From contig CAIQQJ010000131.1 of the NCBI GenBank assembly GCA_903873905.1, forward strand, positions 96,490 to 160,489: 64,000 nt of DNA, in the 5' to 3' direction. The notes below the pieces were generated by a model, which saw only the letters and a list, made by a program, of their open reading frames with translations, made no database searches and was not told the DNA's origin. Each line of letters begins with the position of its first letter. Within the stretch, counting starts at the first letter, position 1. Position numbers and translations under genes: made by a program. Below are positions 1,133 through 63,344 of the stretch, one piece after another. Origin of the DNA: an uncultured Flavobacteriales bacterium (GTDB lineage Bacteria; Bacteroidota; Bacteroidia; Palsa-965).

Positions 1133-1250
1133 TGTTTTTTTTTCGCGTGAGGGATAGCAGTGGAAAGCCCGGATCCCAACAGTACTGTTGGGAGAGGACT
1201 TGCAACGAATAGCCCGACCTGACGCAGGAAGGACACGCCATAAAAAAAAT
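1133..1250 (+). repeat. dispersed intergenic repeat element, copy A (about 115 bp, with a 20-bp perfect palindrome tcccaacagtactgttggga)
   Basis: The visible sequence is tttttttcgcgtgagggatagcagtggaaagccc|ggatcccaacagtactgttggga|gaggacttgcaacgaatagcccgacc...acgccataaaaaaaa. It is about 95% identical to the reverse complement of copy B at about 3140-3245. It shares its terminal modules with copies C and D. Confidence 0.7.
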
Positions 1251-1389
1251 AGAGATAGTCAAAATAGTTCTAGCGGTAGTCGCTTAAAAAAAGGTCTGAG
1301 ACTACGGAGTGGCAGAAAACAGCAAGCAAATAAAATTGCCAATCCCCAAATCAATTGGAAATTGGCAACTAATAAATTCTAAATCCTTC

Positions 1390-2421
1390 TTACTTGACTT
1401 TTTCGGCAGTAGAATATTTCTTCATGAAATCACAGGCTTTGTCAACCATATCGGCGGAACCTGCGAAGAAAGAAGTTCTTTGGTGTAATGTTTTTATTTC
1501 GAGATCCATGATTCTGCGCTCGCCGTCGGTTGCTTTTCCCCCTGCCTGTTCAATAATGAAAGACATTGGATTGCATTCGTACAACAAACGCAATTTCCCA
1601 TTTGGAGAAGCTGCAGTAACCGGATAAATATAAATTCCTCCTGTAATCAGATTGCGATGCACATCGGCAACAGCGGAGCCAATATAACGAGATGAGTAAG
1701 GACGTTTAGATGCAAGATCTTCTTCCTGGCAATACTTGATGTATTTTTTTACACCATCAGGAAAGTGAACGTAGTTTCCTTCATTGATGGAATATGTTTT
1801 TGCAGAAGAAGGCGTTTTCATATTCGGATGCGACAAACAGAATTCCCCAATGGATGGATCGAGTGTAAATCCGTTGACACCTTTTCCCGTTGTGTAAACA
1901 AGCATGGTGGATGAACCATAAATAATATATCCAGCAGCCACTTGATCGGTTCCTCGCTGTAAAAAATCCTCAATGTTTCCCGGACCAGAAAGTGAAAGTC
2001 GGCGATAGATGGAAAAAATTGTTCCGACAGAAACATTCACATCGATATTTGAAGAGCCATCGAGCGGATCCATCGCAACAACATATTTTGCATTTTTGGA
2101 TTGTGCATTGTCGACCACAATCATTTCCTCATTTTCTTCAGAAGCGATTGCGCAAACTTCTCCTCCAACACTCAAGGCAGCAATGAATTGTTCATTTGCA
2201 AAAACATCCAACTTTTTCTGAATTTCACCCTGAATATTTGTTTCTCCACTGTCACTCGCATCACCGAGAATATCGGCAAGTCCTGCTTTATTCACTTCAC
2301 GATTCACAATTTTGGCTGCAATTCCGATATCACGCAAAAGCCGAGAAAGTTCCCCTTTTGCGTAAGGAAAATCATTTTGCTTTTCAATAATAAATTGGCC
2401 TAGTGTTTTTACTTTGCTCAT
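1390..2421 (-). CDS. fbp: fructose-1,6-bisphosphatase class 1
   Basis: 343 aa. Carries the [19 protein letters not shown] motif and a C-terminal GGIYIYP...[21 protein letters not shown] region characteristic of class I FBPase. Confidence 0.9.
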
Positions 2422-2517
2422 TGAGGGATGGAATAAATATTGAGCTACAAAGATGTGAAATTTCAGGGTTTATTCGAGCGATAATTTCACTGAGTTTTAA
2501 GTAACTTCGAGATCCTT

Positions 2518-2979
2518 ATGACAAAAATAACCATCCGAAAAGCCACAAGGCATGACATGCCCGGAGTGCTGGCACTTATTCGTGAACTTGCTGATTACGA
2601 ACGTGCCCCGCAGGAAGTGGTGGTAACTTCCGAAGATTTAGAACGAGATGGATTTGGATCAAATCCGAAATTTTATTGCTTCGTTGCCGAACGGTCAAAT
2701 GAAATTCGAGGAATGGCCTTGTATTACATCAAATATTCCACGTGGAAAGGTCCTTGTGTTTTTCTGGAAGATATTGTTGTAACACAAACAGAACGCAGAA
2801 GTGGAATCGGAAAACTGCTTTTTGAAGAAGTGATGAAGGCGGCCAAAGTAATGGGCGCAAAAAGAATGGAATGGCAAGTGTTGGATTGGAATAAACCCGC
2901 AATAAAATTTTACGAAAAATACAAACCGCAAGTATTGGAAGAATGGCTGAATTATAGAATGACGGAGGAACAGTTGTAA
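2518..2979 (+). CDS. GNAT family N-acetyltransferase (diamine/SSAT-like)
   Basis: 153 aa with an acetyl-CoA binding signature (RRSGIGKLLFEEVMKAA). Confidence 0.8.
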   Translation: MTKITIRKATRHDMPGVLALIRELADYERAPQEVVVTSEDLERDGFGSNPKFYCFVAERSNEIRGMALYYIKYSTWKGPCVFLEDIVVTQTERRSGIGKLLFEEVMKAAKVMGAKRMEWQVLDWNKPAIKFYEKYKPQVLEEWLNYRMTEEQL

Positions 2980-2980
2980 A

Positions 2981-3090
2981 GTTGAAAAGTTGGAAGGTTG
3001 GAAAGTTGGAAAGTTGTTCCGAAGGAATCCCTTCGGGAAAAGGTTGGAAGGTTGAAATTTGTGATTTGAAATTTGGGATTTGGGATTTGA
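2981..3090. repeat. low-complexity tandem tract built from 8-mers (gttggaaa/gttggaag x about 4.5, a small hairpin ccgaagg-aatc-ccttcgg, then gatttgaa/gatttggg x about 3.5)
   Basis: The tract is directly visible. It begins 2 bp after the GNAT stop codon and runs into repeat copy B. Confidence 0.75.
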
Positions 3091-3139
3091 ACTCATTTTT
3101 CGACTGCATCCTGCCCCATTTTTGATTGCAGGCTTTTTT

Positions 3140-3245
3140 AGAATGGCGTGCCCTTCGTGCCTCAGGTCGGGCTATTCGTTGCAAGTCCTCTCCCAACAGT
3201 ACTGTTGGGATCCGGGCTTTTCACTGCTATCCCTCACGCGTTTTA
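3140..3245 (-). repeat. dispersed intergenic repeat element, copy B (inverted relative to copy A)
   Basis: The reverse complement reads cgcgtgagggatagcagtgaaaagcccggatcccaacagtactgttgggagaggacttgcaacgaatagcccgacctgaggcacgaagggcacgccat. This is nearly identical to copy A. Confidence 0.7.
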
Positions 3246-3342
3246 TAAAACTCAAACATCCCATTGCCCACCTTCCCCTCAGAATTGTGGGGATCAGCGT
3301 AGGTGGACTCACGCAAAAAAATAAAACAATTACCTTCACCGA

Positions 3343-4614
3343 ATGAAAGTCTTCAAATTTGGAGGAGCTTCTGTTAAAGATGCAAATGCAGTTCGGAATG
3401 TTGCTGGAATTCTAAAAGAATTTCCAAATGATCAATTGATCGTTGTGATTTCTGCAATGGGAAAAACAACCAATGCACTGGAACAATTGACAGATGCGTA
3501 TTATTTCAAGAAAGGGAATTTGGCATCTATCCTCGATGAAATTCGAAAATTTCATTTCGATATTATCGGAGAATTATTTCCAGATAAAAATCATCCCATT
3601 TACAATGACATTCACAACACTTTTGTGGAACTCGAATGGGTAATTGAAGAGGGCGCAACACAAACACACGATTGCGTTTATGATCAGATTGTTTCCATTG
3701 GAGAATTGCTTTCCACAAAAATTGTAAGTGCTTTTTTGTCGGAGGATCATGTCAAAAATAAATGGTGGGATGTTCGCGATTTTATCAAAACAGACAACAC
3801 CTATCGCGAAGGAAAAGTGGATTGGGATTTGACGGAACAAATGGTGAAAGAGCAATTGATTCCTTTCTTCGAATCGAAAAAAGAGCAGCTCGTAATAACC
3901 CAAGGTTTCATTGGTGTTACATCTGAAAATTTCACGACCACACTTGGGCGGGAAGGCTCTGATTTCACAGCTGCAATTCTTGCCTGGTGCTTGAATGCGG
4001 AGAGTGTCACCATTTGGAAAGATGTTCCCGGTGTATTGAATGCCGATCCAAAATGGTTTGATGAAACAAAATTGATCCCACAACTCACGTATCAGGATGC
4101 GATTGAATTAACTTATTACGGCGCAACTGTCATTCATTCAAAAACAATAAAGCCACTTCAGAATAAAAGAATTCCACTTTACGTTCAATCGTTTCTCCAT
4201 CCGAAAAAAGAGGGAACAAAAATTCATGATCAGCAAATCCATCTTCCTGTTCCTTGTTTTATTTTTAAGGTCAATCAGATTTTGCTTTCCATCTCTCCAA
4301 AAGATTTTTCATTTATAGTTGAAGAAAATCTTGGAGATATTTTTGAATTGTTTGCAAAGCACCGTGTGAAGATGAATGTTATGTTGAATTCTGCTATTAG
4401 TTTTTCGGTTAGCGTAGACTCTGATTCGGAAAAAGTTCCTGCATTGATTGAAAAACTTCGAGAGAATTACCGGGTGCTTTACAATGAGAATGTAGAATTG
4501 GTAACAATTCGTTATTACGACCAAGCAACAATTGATAGAGTTACAGCAGGGAAACAGATTTTTCTTGAAGTGAAAAGCCGTTATACCGTTCAGATTGTAA
4601 TGAAAAACAATTAG
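3343..4614 (+). CDS. lysC: aspartate kinase (monofunctional, with C-terminal ACT regulatory region)
   Basis: 423 aa. The N-terminal MKVFKFGGASV nucleotide-binding motif and overall aspartokinase architecture are present. Confidence 0.88.
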   Translation: MKVFKFGGASVKDANAVRNVAGILKEFPNDQLIVVISAMGKTTNALEQLTDAYYFKKGNLASILDEIRKFHFDIIGELFPDKNHPIYNDIHNTFVELEWVIEEGATQTHDCVYDQIVSIGELLSTKIVSAFLSEDHVKNKWWDVRDFIKTDNTYREGKVDWDLTEQMVKEQLIPFFESKKEQLVITQGFIGVTSENFTTTLGREGSDFTAAILAWCLNAESVTIWKDVPGVLNADPKWFDETKLIPQLTYQDAIELTYYGATVIHSKTIKPLQNKRIPLYVQSFLHPKKEGTKIHDQQIHLPVPCFIFKVNQILLSISPKDFSFIVEENLGDIFELFAKHRVKMNVMLNSAISFSVSVDSDSEKVPALIEKLRENYRVLYNENVELVTIRYYDQATIDRVTAGKQIFLEVKSRYTVQIVMKNN

Positions 4615-8369: not shown

Positions 8370-8457
8370 AATAATTTTGAATTTTGAGTTCAGAATTTTG
8401 AATTAATGCATAGCCCCACTTTTCCTAATTCAAAATTTAGAATTAAGAATTCAAAAT
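8370..8457. repeat. long imperfect inverted repeat of gaatttt/aaattc words (arms about 35 bp; spacer tgcatagccccacttttcc)
   Basis: gaattttgaattttgagttcagaattttgaattaa ... ttaattcaaaatttagaattaagaattcaaaattcaaa is directly visible. It fills the spacer between the DUF4286-like gene stop and the rsmA start. Confidence 0.6.
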
Positions 8458-8757
8458 TCAAACTTCTTCAAGGAGTGTTCTGAAGGCCGTGAATTTGTCC
8501 CCGAATTTTTCAATTGATTCTTTTCGCAAAGCAGGTGCAAAATCCTTCATATAACGATTGATCGCATCCATGTTGGGCGCACGGTATTGTATGGCATAAC
8601 TCGTTCCTGTTTGTTCTTCAACCAAAATTTTGAAAATGGTTCCTGAAGAAAAACAACCTGAGTCAACAACATCCTTTATGTGATTCTCTTTCATCCATTT
8701 CAACCATTCATCATGGTGAGAATCGTCGATGTTGATTGTTACGTTGTAGATTATCAT
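8458..8757 (-). CDS. small conserved hypothetical protein (possibly DUF4286-like)
   Basis: 99-aa ORF packed between rsmA and the TPR gene. The family name is recalled only weakly. Confidence 0.55.
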   Translation of the reverse strand: MIIYNVTINIDDSHHDEWLKWMKENHIKDVVDSGCFSSGTIFKILVEEQTGTSYAIQYRAPNMDAINRYMKDFAPALRKESIEKFGDKFTAFRTLLEEV

Positions 8758-40151: not shown

Positions 40152-41294
40152 ATGAAATCAAAAGTTCTATTTGTCGTACAAGGAGAAGGCCGTGGGCACA
40201 TGACGCAAGCGATTTCATTGCGGCAAATTCTCGAAAAAAATGGATTTGAAATTTGTGGTGCAATTGTGGGCACGAGTGAAAGGAGAACTATTCCTGATTT
40301 TTTTCACAAACAATTTTCAGGGATTCCTGTTGTGAGAATGCAAAGTCCAAATTTCGTTACAAAAAATAATCGTGGAATCAATATTGGAGCAACGGTTTGG
40401 CGCAACTTTGTTCGATTCGGAACGTACATTAAATCGGCGAATTTATTAAAACAAAAAGTTGCTGAATGGAATCCTGAAATTATTATCAACTTCTATGAAC
40501 CGATTGTCGGGTTGTATGCAAAAACAACTCACAAAAGCAAAAGACCACCCATCGTTTGCATCGCCCACCAATATCTTGGAGAACATCCTGATTTTGTTTT
40601 CCCAAAAGGCCATGCTATGGATCGAATTTTTCTAAAAAACTACACAAGCTTAACTTCTTCAGGAGCAGAAAGGATTCTCGCCTTGTCTTTTTCGCCAATG
40701 GGATATTCCGGTTATGAAAAATTAAAAGTTGTTCCGCCACTGCTACGGCAAGAAATAAAAACATTGTCGGTAAATAAGCGTGGCTATTATCTCTGCTACC
40801 TTGTCAATGCTGGATATCGAGATGATATAGAAAACTGGCACAAGAAAAATCCCGGCATCTGTTTGCATGTGTTCACTGACATGGAAACGGAAAAAGAATT
40901 CATTGAAGTGCATGAAAATCTTTTCTTTCACAAATTGAGTGATACCAAATTTCTAGAATACATGTCAGGTTGTAATGGTTTGATAAGCACTGCTGGCTTT
41001 GAATCCGTCTGTGAGGCATTTTATCTTGATAAACCTGTTTTTATGGTTCCTGTTGAAGGACAATTCGAACAATTGTGTAATGGTTTGGATGCTCAGCGTG
41101 CAGGAGTTGGAATTTATGATTTGAAATTTGATATTGGAAAGTTTTTGGATTGGTTGCCTAATCACAAATCTCAATCAAAAGCATTTCATCAATGGGAATC
41201 ATACGCGGAAAAACATTTCGTCAAAAATTTCAACGAAGTGCTCGAGGCAAATGCTCCGGCAGATCCGCTTACCTCCGAACTTCTTCCAGTTTAA
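40152..41294 (+). CDS. MGDG-synthase/UgtP-like glycosyltransferase (GT28 family)
   Basis: N-terminal VQGEGRGHMTQA resembles UgtP TANYGNGHVQVA. C-terminal GLISTAGFESVCEA...VPVEGQFEQLCNGL resembles UgtP KPGGITLTEA...PVPGQEKENANF. It begins 1 nt after the LpxH-like stop. Confidence 0.7.
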   Translation: MKSKVLFVVQGEGRGHMTQAISLRQILEKNGFEICGAIVGTSERRTIPDFFHKQFSGIPVVRMQSPNFVTKNNRGINIGATVWRNFVRFGTYIKSANLLKQKVAEWNPEIIINFYEPIVGLYAKTTHKSKRPPIVCIAHQYLGEHPDFVFPKGHAMDRIFLKNYTSLTSSGAERILALSFSPMGYSGYEKLKVVPPLLRQEIKTLSVNKRGYYLCYLVNAGYRDDIENWHKKNPGICLHVFTDMETEKEFIEVHENLFFHKLSDTKFLEYMSGCNGLISTAGFESVCEAFYLDKPVFMVPVEGQFEQLCNGLDAQRAGVGIYDLKFDIGKFLDWLPNHKSQSKAFHQWESYAEKHFVKNFNEVLEANAPADPLTSELLPV

Positions 41295-51004: not shown

Positions 51005-51014
51005 TTTTAATTAA

Positions 51015-51086
51015 GTTGGAAAGTTGGAAAGTTGGAAAGTTGGAAAGTTGGAAAGTTGGAAAGTTGGAAAGTTGGAAAGTTGGAAA
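51015..51086. repeat. tandem octamer array gttggaaa x 9 (ctttccaa on the gene strand), 10 bp upstream of the lipoprotein ATG
   Basis: The sequence (gttggaaa)9gtta is directly visible. Confidence 0.85.
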
Positions 51087-51162
51087 GTTATTTTTTGTTA
51101 GTCTGATTTAAAAATCATTTGCAAACTTTCTAGAGGCAAACTTTTCAACTTGACAACTACAA

Positions 51163-58549: not shown

Positions 58550-59650
58550 CTAATTATTTTTTTCAGCCACTTCGGCCGCAACAGCTTTTGGTTTTGAATT
58601 CACGATCGCCACTTGCTGCGCAACGTTACCCGCCATTTCCAAAAATGCTTTGGCTTGTGGAGTGGTTTCCTGTAAAACCACAGGGCGACCAACATCACCC
58701 GATTCACAAATGCTTTGCACCAATGGAATTTCTCCGAGAAGAGGAACATCCAAATCTTCCGCCAATTGTTTTGCACCTTCTCTACCGAAAATGTAATATT
58801 TATTTTCAGGCAATTCTGCTGGTGTGAAGTACGCCATGTTTTCTACAATTCCCAGAATAGGAATGTTGATGGATGGCAACTTAAACATCGCGACAGCTTT
58901 TTTCGCATCGGCCAAGGCTACATTCTGAGGAGTGCTGACAATCACTGCGCCTGTAACTGGAATTGCTTCCACGAGTGAGAGGTGAATGTCCCCAGTTCCT
59001 GGAGGAAGATCTACAATCATGTAATCGAGTTCGCCCCAAATGGTTTGACTCAACATTTGATTCAGCGCACGAACAGCAATTGGTCCACGCCAAACAACAG
59101 CTTGATTGATTTCAGCGAAAAAACCCATTGACAATATTTTCACACCATAACTTTCCACCGGAACCATGATATCCTTATCGTCAATTTTCTTCAATTGCGG
59201 TTTTTCATTTACGCAATCGAACATGATGGGCATGGAAGGTCCGTAAATGTCTGCGTCGATCACACCAACACGTGCACCCTGCATGGCAAGTGCACAAGCA
59301 AGATTTGCGGCAACTGTTGATTTTCCTACACCACCTTTTCCAGATGCAACAACAATAAAATTCTTGATGCCTTGCAATTCAAGGCCACTTCGTTGTGAAG
59401 TCACATTCGAAGTCATGTTCACATGGGCAACAGCGTCTTTATCTACAAAATTCGCAATTGCATTCACGCAATTTCTCTTGATCAACTCTTTCAATGGACA
59501 AGCTGGAGTTGTGAGTACAACAGAAAACGAAATGTTTTTTCCATCAATCACAATATCCTGCACCATTCCAAGTGTCACGATATCTTTTTTAAGATCAGGG
59601 TCCTCCACGTTGCGGAGCGCTTCGAGGACTATTTCTTTTGTTATTTTCAT
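58550..59650 (-). CDS. apbC: Mrp/ApbC family Fe-S cluster carrier ATPase
   Basis: Walker A GKGGVGKST, an N-terminal DUF59-like domain and a CxxC pair. Start at MKITKEIVLEAL. Confidence 0.88.
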   Translation of the reverse strand: MKITKEIVLEALRNVEDPDLKKDIVTLGMVQDIVIDGKNISFSVVLTTPACPLKELIKRNCVNAIANFVDKDAVAHVNMTSNVTSQRSGLELQGIKNFIVVASGKGGVGKSTVAANLACALAMQGARVGVIDADIYGPSMPIMFDCVNEKPQLKKIDDKDIMVPVESYGVKILSMGFFAEINQAVVWRGPIAVRALNQMLSQTIWGELDYMIVDLPPGTGDIHLSLVEAIPVTGAVIVSTPQNVALADAKKAVAMFKLPSINIPILGIVENMAYFTPAELPENKYYIFGREGAKQLAEDLDVPLLGEIPLVQSICESGDVGRPVVLQETTPQAKAFLEMAGNVAQQVAIVNSKPKAVAAEVAEKNN

Positions 59651-59741
59651 AGCGCAAAGGTAAGGAGAAGGAGCAGGCAAAAAAGAAGAAGTTGGCAGGA
59701 AATTTTAGCTCCAATTCATTTCAAGGAAATTGTTAAAATAT

Positions 59742-59870
59742 TTTGGGCGTGCCCCCAACAGTACTGTTGGGGGCGGGCTATACGTTGCAAGTCCTCAGCC
59801 GCAGTGTCGGGTTTAAAAACCCAACACAGCGTCTTCCGGGCTTTCCTCTCCTATCCCTCACGCAAAAAAG
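59742..59870 (-). repeat. dispersed intergenic repeat element, copy C (22-bp palindrome cccccaacagtactgttggggg plus an extra hairpin gtgtcgggtttaaaaacccaacac)
   Basis: It shares the gcgtgccc, gggctat.cgttgcaagtcctc, ccgggcttt and tatccctcacgc modules with copy B, in rearranged order. Confidence 0.65.
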
Positions 59871-60572: not shown

Positions 60573-60680
60573 TTTTTTTGCGCAAGGGATAGTAGTGGAA
60601 AGCCCACAGCTGCGTGGCAAGTGTGTTGGAGCGAGGACTTGAAACGGATAGCCCGACCCGCAGGGATGCGCCCAAATAAA
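60573..60680 (+). repeat. dispersed intergenic repeat element, copy D (central palindrome replaced by acagctgcgtggcaagtgtgttgg)
   Basis: The sequence tttttttgcgcaagggatagtagtggaaagccc...gcgaggacttgaaacggatagcccgacccgcagggatgcgcc matches the ends of copy A. Confidence 0.6.
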
Positions 60681-60721: not shown

Positions 60722-60755
60722 AAAATCTCCACATTGCTGTAGAGATTTTAATTTT
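60722..60755. terminator. bidirectional rho-independent terminator downstream of fumC (and of 60068..60553)
   Basis: aaaaaatctccacattgctgtagagattttaatttt. The minus strand gives the stem aaatctc/gagattt followed by tttttattt. Confidence 0.55.
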
Positions 60756-60868
60756 CAATTTCACAAAGAGAATTCTCAGAAACCCGGAATGTACAATGTC
60801 AAACAAACAATGTACAATGTTCAAGTAAAAAGTTTTCTCAATACCCAATACGCAATACTCAATACTCT

Positions 60869-62281: not shown

Positions 62282-62290
62282 GATATTTTT

Positions 62291-62332
62291 TTTTGAAGTG
62301 ATGAAGTAATTAAGTGATTGGGTGATGAAGTG
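62291..62332. repeat. single inverted copy of the tcatcacccaat / attacttcatcac repeat (downstream flank of the four-helix-bundle gene)
   Basis: gaagtgatgaagtaattaagtgattgggtgatgaagtg is the reverse complement of the motif that is tandemly repeated at about 62870-62945. Confidence 0.6.
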
Positions 62333-62348: not shown

Positions 62349-62756
62349 TTAGTGAATGTTATGAGGTTTAGAGGAAAATTTTGGAATAGAAAGCTTCACT
62401 TTTTTGATTAATCCGTTCAACATCGCAGCTATATGATTAAGATCATCTGTCAACTCCAAATGAGTTGTTTGGTTTAAATAATTCAATCGTAATGAAATAT
62501 CCAAAAGCGTATCGACCTCACTAAGAGATGCACGCGATATGTTTAGAAATCTTGCGTATTCCTTTGCACTCCCCCTTGCAGACCCTTCAGAAATATTTGC
62601 AGAAACAGAAACCGATGCTCGCCTCAATTGCAAAGTAAGGCCATAAATTTCATGACGGGGAAAACTGTCGGTGTGCAAATAAACTTTCTCAATAAAATCC
62701 ATTGATTTTTGCCAAACGATCAACCTCTTGTGAGGTCGAATACTTTTCAATTCCAT
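62349..62756 (-). CDS. four-helix-bundle protein (TIGR02436 / 23S rRNA-intervening-sequence protein family, Avd-like)
   Basis: Start at [26 protein letters not shown]...ISEGSARGS...[12 protein letters not shown]. This is the characteristic family sequence. Confidence 0.7.
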
Positions 62757-62869
62757 AACAAAACACAATTAAAATAAATACAAAAAACAAATAAATTACA
62801 ATCAACAAAATCTCAAAAAATAATTACAAATATAAAAATTCATCATTTCATCGCCCCATCACTCTTTAT

Positions 62870-62945
62870 TTTCTCACCTCATTACCTCATCACCCAATTA
62901 CTTCATCACCTCATCACCCAATTACTTCATCACCCAATAACCTCA
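62870..62945. repeat. tandem array of cctcatcacccaattacttcatcac units (about 3 copies; upstream flank of the four-helix-bundle gene)
   Basis: ctcattacctcatcacccaattacttcatcacctcatcacccaattacttcatcacccaataacctcataac is directly visible. Confidence 0.7.
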
Positions 62946-62948
62946 TAA

Positions 62949-63344
62949 CTAAATCACCTCCAGAATCCTTTCAATCGGCCTTCCAATCACCGCCTTGCTC
63001 CCCTTGATCACAATCGGTCGCTCAATGAGAATTGGGTATTTCACCATCGCCTTAATCCATTTCTCCTCATCCATTTTCTTGTCGCGGAAATTTTCCTTGT
63101 AAACATCTTCTTTCTTGCGAATCAATTCTTCCGCAGAAATTCCAAGTTTTTTCAAAACGGATTTGATGTCTGCTTCCGTAACTTTCACTTCAGAATAAAG
63201 AAACACTTCAGGAACTATTTTTTTCTGTTCCAACAATTCCATCGCCTTGCGACTCATACTACAGGACTTCCGATGCCAGACTTCGATACGTTCCGCTGAA
63301 GGAGCGGAACTACTCAGTCTGACAATTTTGTTTTTTTTCGCCAT
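62949..63344 (-). CDS. ArsC/Spx/YffB-family thioredoxin-fold protein
   Basis: 131 aa. IEVWHRKSCSMSRKAMELLEQ (CxxS redox motif) and the C-terminal YPILIERPIVIKG. Confidence 0.7.
   Translation of the reverse strand: MAKKNKIVRLSSSAPSAERIEVWHRKSCSMSRKAMELLEQKKIVPEVFLYSEVKVTEADIKSVLKKLGISAEELIRKKEDVYKENFRDKKMDEEKWIKAMVKYPILIERPIVIKGSKAVIGRPIERILEVI

Follow-up and report, generated by a model that had tools for sequence, protein, structure and literature searches.

What is the short repeat that stands, in opposite orientations, on either side of fbp and a GNAT acetyltransferase gene in an uncultured Flavobacteriales bacterium, and how is it copied? The question was raised by an earlier note on 64,000 nucleotides of contig CAIQQJ010000131.1 (assembly GCA_903873905.1, positions 96,490 to 160,489; this whole stretch is called the window below), which had reported two copies sharing a perfect palindrome. 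Our analysis makes it highly probable that the repeats are members of a Bacteroidota-wide family of intergenic elements (~90-130 nt) homologous to the Flavo-1 RNA motif, and that their sense strand (GCGUGAGGGAUAG...) folds as a closed three-way junction.

The inverted pair proved to be real. A repeat search of the window returned arms of 106 nt each at 1144-1249 (+) and 3135-3240 (-), spaced by 1885 nt and 93% complementary, close to the ~95% given before. A covariance model built from 50 related elements (R1) was scored at every window position and revealed a total of four copies, A to D, with the next-best match at 9 bits. The two copies of the earlier note, A and B, were therefore confirmed, while C and D had been overlooked; copy C was reached through a third palindrome site and copy D through a whole-window Rfam search in E-value mode. 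Copy C was absent from the seed alignment of R1, yet R1 detected it. In the following coordinates, P1 is the closing stem, and P2 and P3 are the two hairpins of the predicted junction.

Copy A, 1145-1241, + strand: R1 93.2 bits, E=2.3e-20, model match 1139-1246; Rfam Flavo-1 match 1140-1223 (+), 36.8 bits.
Parts of copy A: P1 5' strand GCGTG 1145-1149; junction A 1150; P2 5' strand 1151-1170; P2 tip 1171-1195, holding the 20-nt palindrome 1174-1193; P2 3' strand 1196-1215; junction G 1216; P3 1217-1233; P1 3' strand CACGC 1234-1238; tail CAT 1239-1241, followed by an A-run 1242-1249.
Copy B, 3143-3239, - strand: 93% identical to A; R1 86.9 bits, model match 3138-3245; Rfam Flavo-1 match 3161-3248 (-), 32.3 bits.
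Parts of copy B: P1 5' strand 3239-3235; P2-tip palindrome 3191-3210; P1 3' strand 3150-3146; tail CAT 3145-3143.
Copy C, 59744-59863, - strand: R1 80.2 bits, E=3e-17, model match 59739-59869.
Parts of copy C: P1 5' strand 59863-59859; P2 tip a long, different hairpin; P3 formed by the palindrome site 59753-59772; P1 3' strand 59751-59747; tail CCA 59746-59744.
Copy D, 60580-60674, + strand: R1 94.0 bits, model match 60574-60679; Rfam Flavo-1 match 60575-60662 (+), 35.3 bits.
Parts of copy D: P1 GCGCA/TGCGC, 60580-60584 with 60667-60671, compensatory relative to A-C; no palindrome; tail CCA 60672-60674.

The identity of A and B takes in both variable arms and stops 1 nt before P1 and 3 nt after it. 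The T-run and A-run said to frame each copy are present in copy A, the former at 1135-1143, and are weaker in copy B; the conserved modules described along with them are likewise evident in the sequence. Two open reading frames (ORFs) beginning MGEDLQRIARP, at 1188-1382 (+) and 2729-3196 (-), each start within a repeat and are spurious, as had been suspected.

That the element is structured was supported by in-silico folding together with covariation, which give a three-way junction. The flanks of all matches follow one constant layout, consisting of a 5-nt P1 5' strand, one A, the block GGGAUAGNAGUGRAAAGCCC, a variable hairpin, the block GGACUUGCAACGNAUAGCCC, one G, the variable hairpin P3 starting with ACC, an exact complement of the P1 5' strand, and the tail CCAAA. 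The two blocks form the P2 stem and are nearly invariant, with a freely variable tip between them, and P1 occurs across the family in ~18 distinct complementary versions, including GCGUG/CACGC, GCGUU/AACGC, CGGCC/GGCCG, GCGCA/UGCGC (the type of copy D), GGCUG/CAGCC, GCAUG/CAUGC and GUGAU/AUCAC. P1, P2 and P3 were all predicted by RNAalifold without guidance, and the minimum-free-energy fold of copy A is the same three-way junction.

An initial test of P1 complementarity scored 102/109 against ~50/109 in a control that was itself uninformative. In a MAFFT alignment of 50 seed sequences (A2), chosen partly for a detected P1 partner, 94.9% of cells were paired, compared with 20-43% when partners were slid by 1-3 columns, and changes on both sides were found in all five P1 pairs, both tip-closing pairs and all three P3 pairs. 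In an alignment of 111 model matches from 100 loci (A3), made without P1 pre-selection and fitted to the model, so that it favours the given structure, 19 of the 22 pairs were compensatory and the P2 pairs were kept at 96-99%; the covariation score was 0.322, against 0.081 for shuffled alignments (0/500 reached the observed value) and 0.03-0.05 for slid partners. The internal loops of P2 are purine/purine (5'-GNA/5'-GNA), composed of A·G; G·A, N·N, A·G; and G·A, G-C, A·G, and non-standard cells across the modelled pairs were purine-purine in 103 cases versus pyrimidine-pyrimidine in 27. Whole-element folding gave -29.3 kcal/mol for the sense and -27.3 kcal/mol for the antisense strand (p ~4e-7), with the same direction for each variable arm alone. 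Since the sense strand folds better and its mismatches are purine-rich, we take it as the folding strand; the folded state may be RNA or single-stranded DNA. The partial selection of A2, the fitting of A3 and the modest strand asymmetry of G·U (46) versus A·C (33) cells across the modelled pairs count against this structural case.

A search of the whole window at Rfam gathering thresholds returned no match, and Flavo-1 (RF01705) surfaced only in E-value mode. Copies A, D and B, at 36.8, 35.3 and 32.3 bits, stay below the Flavo-1 gathering score of 42 bits, which served as the operational cut-off. The E-values were 3.5e-4, 8.9e-4 and 5.9e-3 for the three copies in the whole-window search, and 1.3e-5 (copy A) and 2.2e-4 in a 2.4-kb search; copy C gave no Rfam Flavo-1 match at E<=1. 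The matches of A, B and D span the full 76-position model with all stem segments paired (cmscan). The published Flavo-1 alignment holds the same sequence type, with rows reading GCGUGAGGGAUAG... and ...AUAGCCCGACC (Weinberg 2010 supplement, PMC2864571), and further rows reading GCGUGAGGGAUA.GAAGC..., GCGUUAGGGAUA.GUAGU... and ...CGGAUAGCCCGACC (PMC2864571). Because of the full-model matches and the same sequence types in the published alignment, we assign the window repeats to the Flavo-1 family below the Rfam cut-off. The two are alike in having a hairpin with the blocks GAU.G.AG.GGAAA... / ...UUG.A.CG.A.AGC and internal loops, in phylum and in being multicopy. The difference is that the Rfam model describes only P2, with 8 unpaired positions per side, whereas elements of the window type add conserved, covarying P1 and P3 and the CCAAA tail. 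P1, P3 and the tail are thus a modest extension of the published model, turning the motif into a closed three-way junction.

Among 18 other loci tested, no element of the GGGAUAG type came up to the Rfam cut-off; the copies that passed it, with 59-83 bits, were three of an AT-rich subtype. These three (L074 3654-3733, L020 1864-1945 and L044 3223-3299) occupy a syntenic position in three Flavobacterium species and have P2 and a P3-like hairpin without an obvious P1. Each lies ~100 nt from an S-adenosylmethionine (SAM) riboswitch on the opposite strand, and the antisense of the AT-rich element may fall within the leader controlled by that riboswitch.

A search for the 21-nt core GGACTTGCAACGNATAGCCCG, with one genome per species, found at least 116 loci. 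The earlier note had described a dispersed family and allowed that the copies might be local duplications if no others existed; with four copies in the window and these loci in other Bacteroidota, the dispersed family stands. The core matches listed came from Flavobacteriia, Bacteroidia, Cytophagia, Chitinophagia and Sphingobacteriia, among them Flavobacterium, other Flavobacteriaceae, Chitinophagaceae, Cyclobacteriaceae, Cytophagales, Sphingobacteriaceae, Bacteroides and Parabacteroides; all of those listed were from Bacteroidota except three contigs of metagenome-assembled genomes, and several genomes had 2-4 loci. The three exceptions (L027, L091 and L105) are labelled Bifidobacterium, carry typical Bacteroidota elements beside Bacteroidota-like genes, and are probably binning contamination. 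The original Flavo-1 paper states only its occurrence in Bacteroidetes (PMC2864571), a review places Flavo-1 among the most abundant small RNA (sRNA) families of Rfam with no role known (PMC9029176), and our search of the literature on RF01705 and on MITE (miniature inverted-repeat transposable element) or REP (repetitive extragenic palindromic) sequences in Flavobacterium found nothing on function. The Rfam class of Flavo-1 is sRNA.

The palindrome that first drew attention to the repeats, TCCCAACAGTACTGTTGGGA, is exact at 1174-1193 and 3191-3210, and no match arose in 100 shuffles of the window; the third site, at 59753-59772, has 2 mismatches. It forms the P2 tip in A and B, the same 18 nt form P3 in C, and D lacks it. 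Its 12-nt core was found in no other family member across ~1 Mb of fetched loci. As the other members lack this core and the arm that holds it differs among copies, the palindrome is not the hallmark of the family for which it had been taken. It is a lineage-specific filling of an arm that varies across the family, in other words an interchangeable hairpin tip. In metagenome contigs, the 18-mer CCCAACAGTACTGTTGGG was found in 25 places, only one of which is a family element, the orthologue of copies C and D. Ten of these 25 places have its stem lengthened by 3-17 perfect bp, with a different sequence each time (chance expectation ~0.4). Here CCCAACAGTACTGTTGGG tips unrelated longer hairpins in low-GC contigs (within L130-L154), often in a frame of A-run and T-run, and many of the hairpins are terminator-like (L139, L141, L144, L145, L138, L149 and L153). 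CCCAACAGTACTGTTGGG itself might be a small module that inserts into hairpin loops.

We then considered the placement of the elements relative to genes and transcription signals. The features beside the window copies are as follows.

1390-2421, - strand: fbp, the fructose-1,6-bisphosphatase (FBPase) gene.
2518-2979, + strand: GNAT acetyltransferase gene.
3343-4614, + strand: amino-acid kinase gene of the aspartate-kinase type (AK).
1334-1370, - strand: terminator-like hairpin, T-rich in its tail, that immediately follows the fbp stop and separates fbp from copy A.
60722-60749: terminator-like hairpin common to the convergent genes beside copy D.

Copies A and B run antisense to the genes on either side of them. 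Copy C stands upstream of, and in the same sense as, an Mrp/NUBPL-type ATPase gene; copy D stands downstream of, and in the same sense as, a 161-aa ORF. Across the family, 97/99 elements are intergenic, ~100 nt from gene ends. Of those with ORFs on both sides (n=83), 27 are co-directional with their neighbours, 23 antisense to both, 20 flanked by divergent genes and 13 by convergent ones; the orientation of the elements to the genes around them is random, with no preference. The upstream flank has no conserved promoter-like block, only T at 42-60% of positions -3 to -1, and the downstream flank has no U-run, its consensus being CCAAAWWA with A at 75-81% of positions +3 to +5. A terminator scan of the window called neither the closing stem nor the full structure of any element; the single call inside an element is a 5-bp stem at 59758-59743, in the P3-P1 3' region of copy C. 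Since fbp has its own hairpin at 1370-1334, copy A would not be needed for ending the fbp transcript. The proposal that the copies end transcripts from both strands is accordingly not supported, given the missing U-run, the A-rich 3' flank and the separate hairpins at fbp and near D. In five Flavobacterium loci (L009, L044, L050, L096 and L098), an additional conserved block, aaaagttcttttgaaaccg, lies a few nt before P1 and is similar to the Bacteroidetes -7 promoter box TAnnTTTG; the block may be a genus-specific promoter or belong to a larger repeat unit. In a transcriptome study of F. psychrophilum, Flavo-1 matches were sense or antisense to transcribed regions and many were untranscribed, and some coincided with structured 5' transcribed regions (PMC9723704).

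The relation between copies of one genome bears on how the family spreads. The likeness of variable arms had a median of 0.55 within the same genome versus 0.35 between different genomes (p=9e-8), and in one Bacteroidia chromosome four copies at 1.7, 2.1, 2.3 and 4.0 Mb had arm scores of 0.80-0.94. Copies within a genome form genome-specific subfamilies. The window FBPase is at most 93% identical to any protein of the large collection searched; in relatives with 89-91% FBPase identity (L120-L124), no element was found in the 8-21 kb around the AK-GNAT-fbp-hypothetical locus, where gene order is kept. One of them (L121 4308-9246) has three Por_Secre_tail (type IX secretion signal) genes between AK and GNAT, and another (L120 9073-9271), whose FBPase is identical to that of L121, has a 197-nt spacer in the AK-GNAT position. 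Metagenome contigs that encode an identical GNAT protein begin within copy A, as is usual where a repeat has broken an assembly. A 1305-bp metagenome contig (L152/L158) matches the window at 99.6% identity over copies C and D; its likeness ends exactly after ...CACGCCCA, the 3' edge of C, where the end of a different gene follows. Its positions 1-160 diverge from window 59578-59736, and other same-strain contigs keep the window arrangement. The break reflects either rearrangement at the element or a chimeric assembly through another copy.

On the reading we favour, which we put at an even balance, the family is a non-autonomous repeat that proliferates in dependence on its fold and is REP-like in behaviour; the REP-type behaviour suggested for the repeats is supported. 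As to mechanism, we suggest tentatively, and with confidence a shade short of that balance, that the unit from P1 to the tail multiplies within genomes as a non-autonomous repeat distinct from a DDE-transposase MITE. The element would be copied into new AT-rich intergenic sites through a single-stranded intermediate (DNA or RNA), and a putative trans-acting enzyme would recognise the conserved junction and the P2 loops. Such a recognition requirement would explain why the core is frozen across the phylum while the two hairpin tips drift. That A and B stand inverted around fbp and GNAT is coincidental, the two having been inserted or copied independently, and effects on neighbouring transcripts, if any, are secondary.

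Several observations speak against proliferation of this kind. The intergenic DNA of the nearest species-level relatives cannot be aligned with the window. Presence/absence polymorphism between strains, to which the earlier note had looked, did not appear: the contigs that encode an identical GNAT or 161-aa protein all carry the elements, no empty site was found, and 5/5 strain-level contigs carry C and D. No transposase, reverse transcriptase or other partner was found, the genes beside the four copies being housekeeping genes. Direct repeats of 4, 5 and 6 nt flank 32, 7 and 0 of 99 elements, versus 31.1, 8.6 and 1.9 in permuted controls, which indicates no target-site duplications, and there is no terminal inverted repeat beyond the covarying 5-bp P1. 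The core was present in only 5 of 2.9 million viral contigs, and this rarity makes phage-borne spread unlikely. Finally, a 20-nt core that is near-invariant across a phylum is unusual for a selfish repeat and fits a host-beneficial RNA just as well. In addition, extension of the P1 stem into the flanks was no higher than in composition or permuted controls, and a search for a split autonomous element, with an ORF in the P2 tip or P3, found none in 129 loci.

Among known classes, the window element resembles REPs, bacterial interspersed mosaic elements (BIMEs) and REPINs of Proteobacteria in being short, structured, extragenic and multicopy, in occurring in either orientation and often in nearby pairs, in its genome-specific subfamilies and in its lack of target-site duplications; it agrees with the definition of REPs as short extragenic palindromic multicopy repeats in both orientations. 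The conservation of REPs is generally attributed to an enzyme (RAYT) that acts in trans and is specific for single strands. However, REPs are simple imperfect palindromes of ~35 nt, specific to a species or genus, whereas the window element is a ~100-nt three-way junction with a phylum-wide invariant core, and no RAYT-like gene flanked by repeats was seen among the housekeeping genes beside the four window copies, a genome-wide search not having been made. Bacterial MITEs (Correia/NEMIS, ERIC, RUP, BOX) are likewise small, non-coding, dispersed, intergenic and able to fold as RNA when co-transcribed, and they share the spurious ORFs and assembly breaks. They differ in having target-site duplications and terminal inverted repeats that match those of a parent insertion sequence (IS), both of which the window element lacks. 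The comparison with a classical MITE therefore failed on target-site duplications, checked in the 99 elements, and on terminal inverted repeats, the sole one being the 5-bp P1. Palindrome-associated transposable elements (PATEs) derived from IS200/IS605 have no target-site duplications or terminal inverted repeats and are recognised as folded single-stranded DNA with mismatched hairpins. On the points compared, the window element is like PATEs in lacking target-site duplications and in its fixed short edge sequence, and unlike them in having no subterminal pair of left- and right-end hairpins, no TnpA/TnpB gene nearby and mixed orientation within 64 kb. The Bacteroides sRNAs FopS and GibS are also multicopy and non-coding in Bacteroidota, but are of unrelated architecture: in FopS a terminator hairpin comes after a single-stranded 5' seed, and this sRNA has promoters of its own and is confined to Bacteroidaceae (PMC11697453). 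Identity with FopS/GibS was rejected on account of this different architecture (PMC11697453).

The repeats might instead be multicopy small structured RNAs, either independent genes or processed, that serve the host, for example as a platform or sponge for an RNA-binding protein, with copies arising by ordinary duplication. We consider this rather unlikely, although the strong covariation, the phylum-wide invariant core, the better folding of the sense strand, the Rfam class and the purine-rich loops typical of sites of protein or tertiary contact all agree with it, as does the acceptor-stem-like geometry of a CCA(AA) after the closing stem with a continuous 3' strand from P3 to P1. It would not lead one to expect the lack of a conserved promoter (beyond the weak T bias at -1 to -3) and of a U-tract terminator, the random orientation to genes, the absence of elements from syntenic loci of related species, or genome-specific subfamilies dispersed megabases apart; in F. 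psychrophilum, moreover, many matches lie outside transcribed regions and others are antisense (PMC9723704).

Action in cis on neighbouring mRNAs, as bidirectional terminators, 3'-end stabilisers or 5'-untranslated-region regulators in the manner of exapted REP/BIME sequences, is improbable in our view. Stable structures (-32 to -54 kcal/mol) placed ~100 nt from gene ends would suit such a role, and so would the Flavo-1 matches at structured 5' transcribed regions of F. psychrophilum (PMC9723704) and the threshold-passing copies near SAM riboswitches in three Flavobacterium species. Yet the stems are followed by an A-rich sense tail without a U-run, no closing stem or full structure was called as a terminator, fbp and the gene pair beside D are served by separate hairpins, divergent genes flank 20/83 elements, sense placements are as frequent as antisense ones, and A and B are antisense to both neighbours. 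The idea that fbp and GNAT are carried by a composite or MITE-like mobile unit, with A and B as its ends, draws on the inverted arrangement, 93% identity and 1.9-kb spacing of the two copies, and is extremely improbable. The AK-GNAT-fbp-hypothetical order is kept in relatives without elements (L120-L124), target-site duplications are lacking, there is no transposase inside or nearby, and each copy alone is a complete three-way-junction unit; inverted pairs in L027 and L051 enclose unrelated housekeeping genes. With synteny kept without elements and such pairs elsewhere, the composite unit once proposed around fbp and GNAT does not hold.

Other candidates were also rejected. An intrinsic terminator calls for a GC-rich stem and a U-run, and the 3' flank reads CCAAAWWA. 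ARAGORN found no tRNA genes in the window and Rfam no tRNA match at E<=10 around A and B, and a tRNA or tRNA-like element is not supported; only the P3-P1-CCA geometry is reminiscent of tRNA. Mimicry of rRNA by the conserved cores yielded only one weak 14-mer match, to a Mucilaginibacter rRNA operon. Hammerhead and other small ribozymes were rejected by eye, the junction strands being 0-1 nt long, with no CUGANGA/GAAA core and no Rfam match.

The copies A and B stand next to tandem arrays of 7-8-bp units, which Tandem Repeats Finder placed at 1042-1075, 1106-1133, 2967-3016 and 3052-3091, in agreement with the earlier description.

1042-1133: tandem arrays (TTGGAAT)x4.9 and (AACTTTTC)x3.5, beside copy A.
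2967-3091: tandem arrays (GGAAAGTT)x6 and (TTGAAAT)x5.7, between the GNAT stop and copy B.

The arrays are a general intergenic feature of the lineage, present without elements and in element-less relatives, and are not part of the element. Further arrays lie in the window at 8373-8466, 41107-41153, 51013-51089, 60788-60867, 62294-62332 and 62874-62960, the one at 51013-51089 being a perfect (AAGTTGGA)x9.6. The element-less relative L123 has arrays of its own at 3805-3998 and 1979-2085, inverted just after stops, which would form long hairpins, and similar arrays flank elements in other taxa (L055, L023, L043 and L057). Compared with window 2967-3016, a contig with an identical GNAT protein (L117 1778-2154), which is probably the same strain as the window, has one extra GGAAAGTT unit after the GNAT stop; the arrays thus vary in copy number between near-identical strains. 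Beyond a fumarase-type lyase gene, a 139-aa ORF (62349-62768, -) is bracketed by mutually inverted-complement arrays at 62285-62332 and 62907-62965. Its counterpart of 135 aa in strain-level contigs is annotated with Pfam 23S_rRNA_IVP and bAvd; the 139-aa window ORF was matched to it by position only.

The family is already known, and the window copies, as new sub-threshold members, would not surprise a specialist. What is new here is the model of a closed three-way junction whose CCA(AA) edge is fixed, the lack of an orientation preference, the genome-specific subfamilies, and a covariance model that detects copies below the Rfam threshold, all four window copies being below or outside that cut-off. 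In practical terms, metagenome assemblies break at the elements, annotation acquires spurious ORFs from them, and rearrangement breakpoints may coincide with them. Flavo-1 has been without an assigned function since 2010, and the junction, the orientation and the subfamilies lead to a testable hypothesis of structure-dependent proliferation. A bolder version, which we regard as something of a long shot, is that the three-way junction and the CCA(AA) edge could serve as the module by which a phylum-wide mobile RNA or single-stranded DNA element is recognised. This element would be a bacterial counterpart of short interspersed nuclear elements (SINEs) or REPINs, and its copying would fall to a conserved Bacteroidota enzyme reading the purine loops of P2 and the P3-P1-CCA minihelix. 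If this is true, Flavo-1 would be a structure-dependent selfish replicator and not an sRNA.

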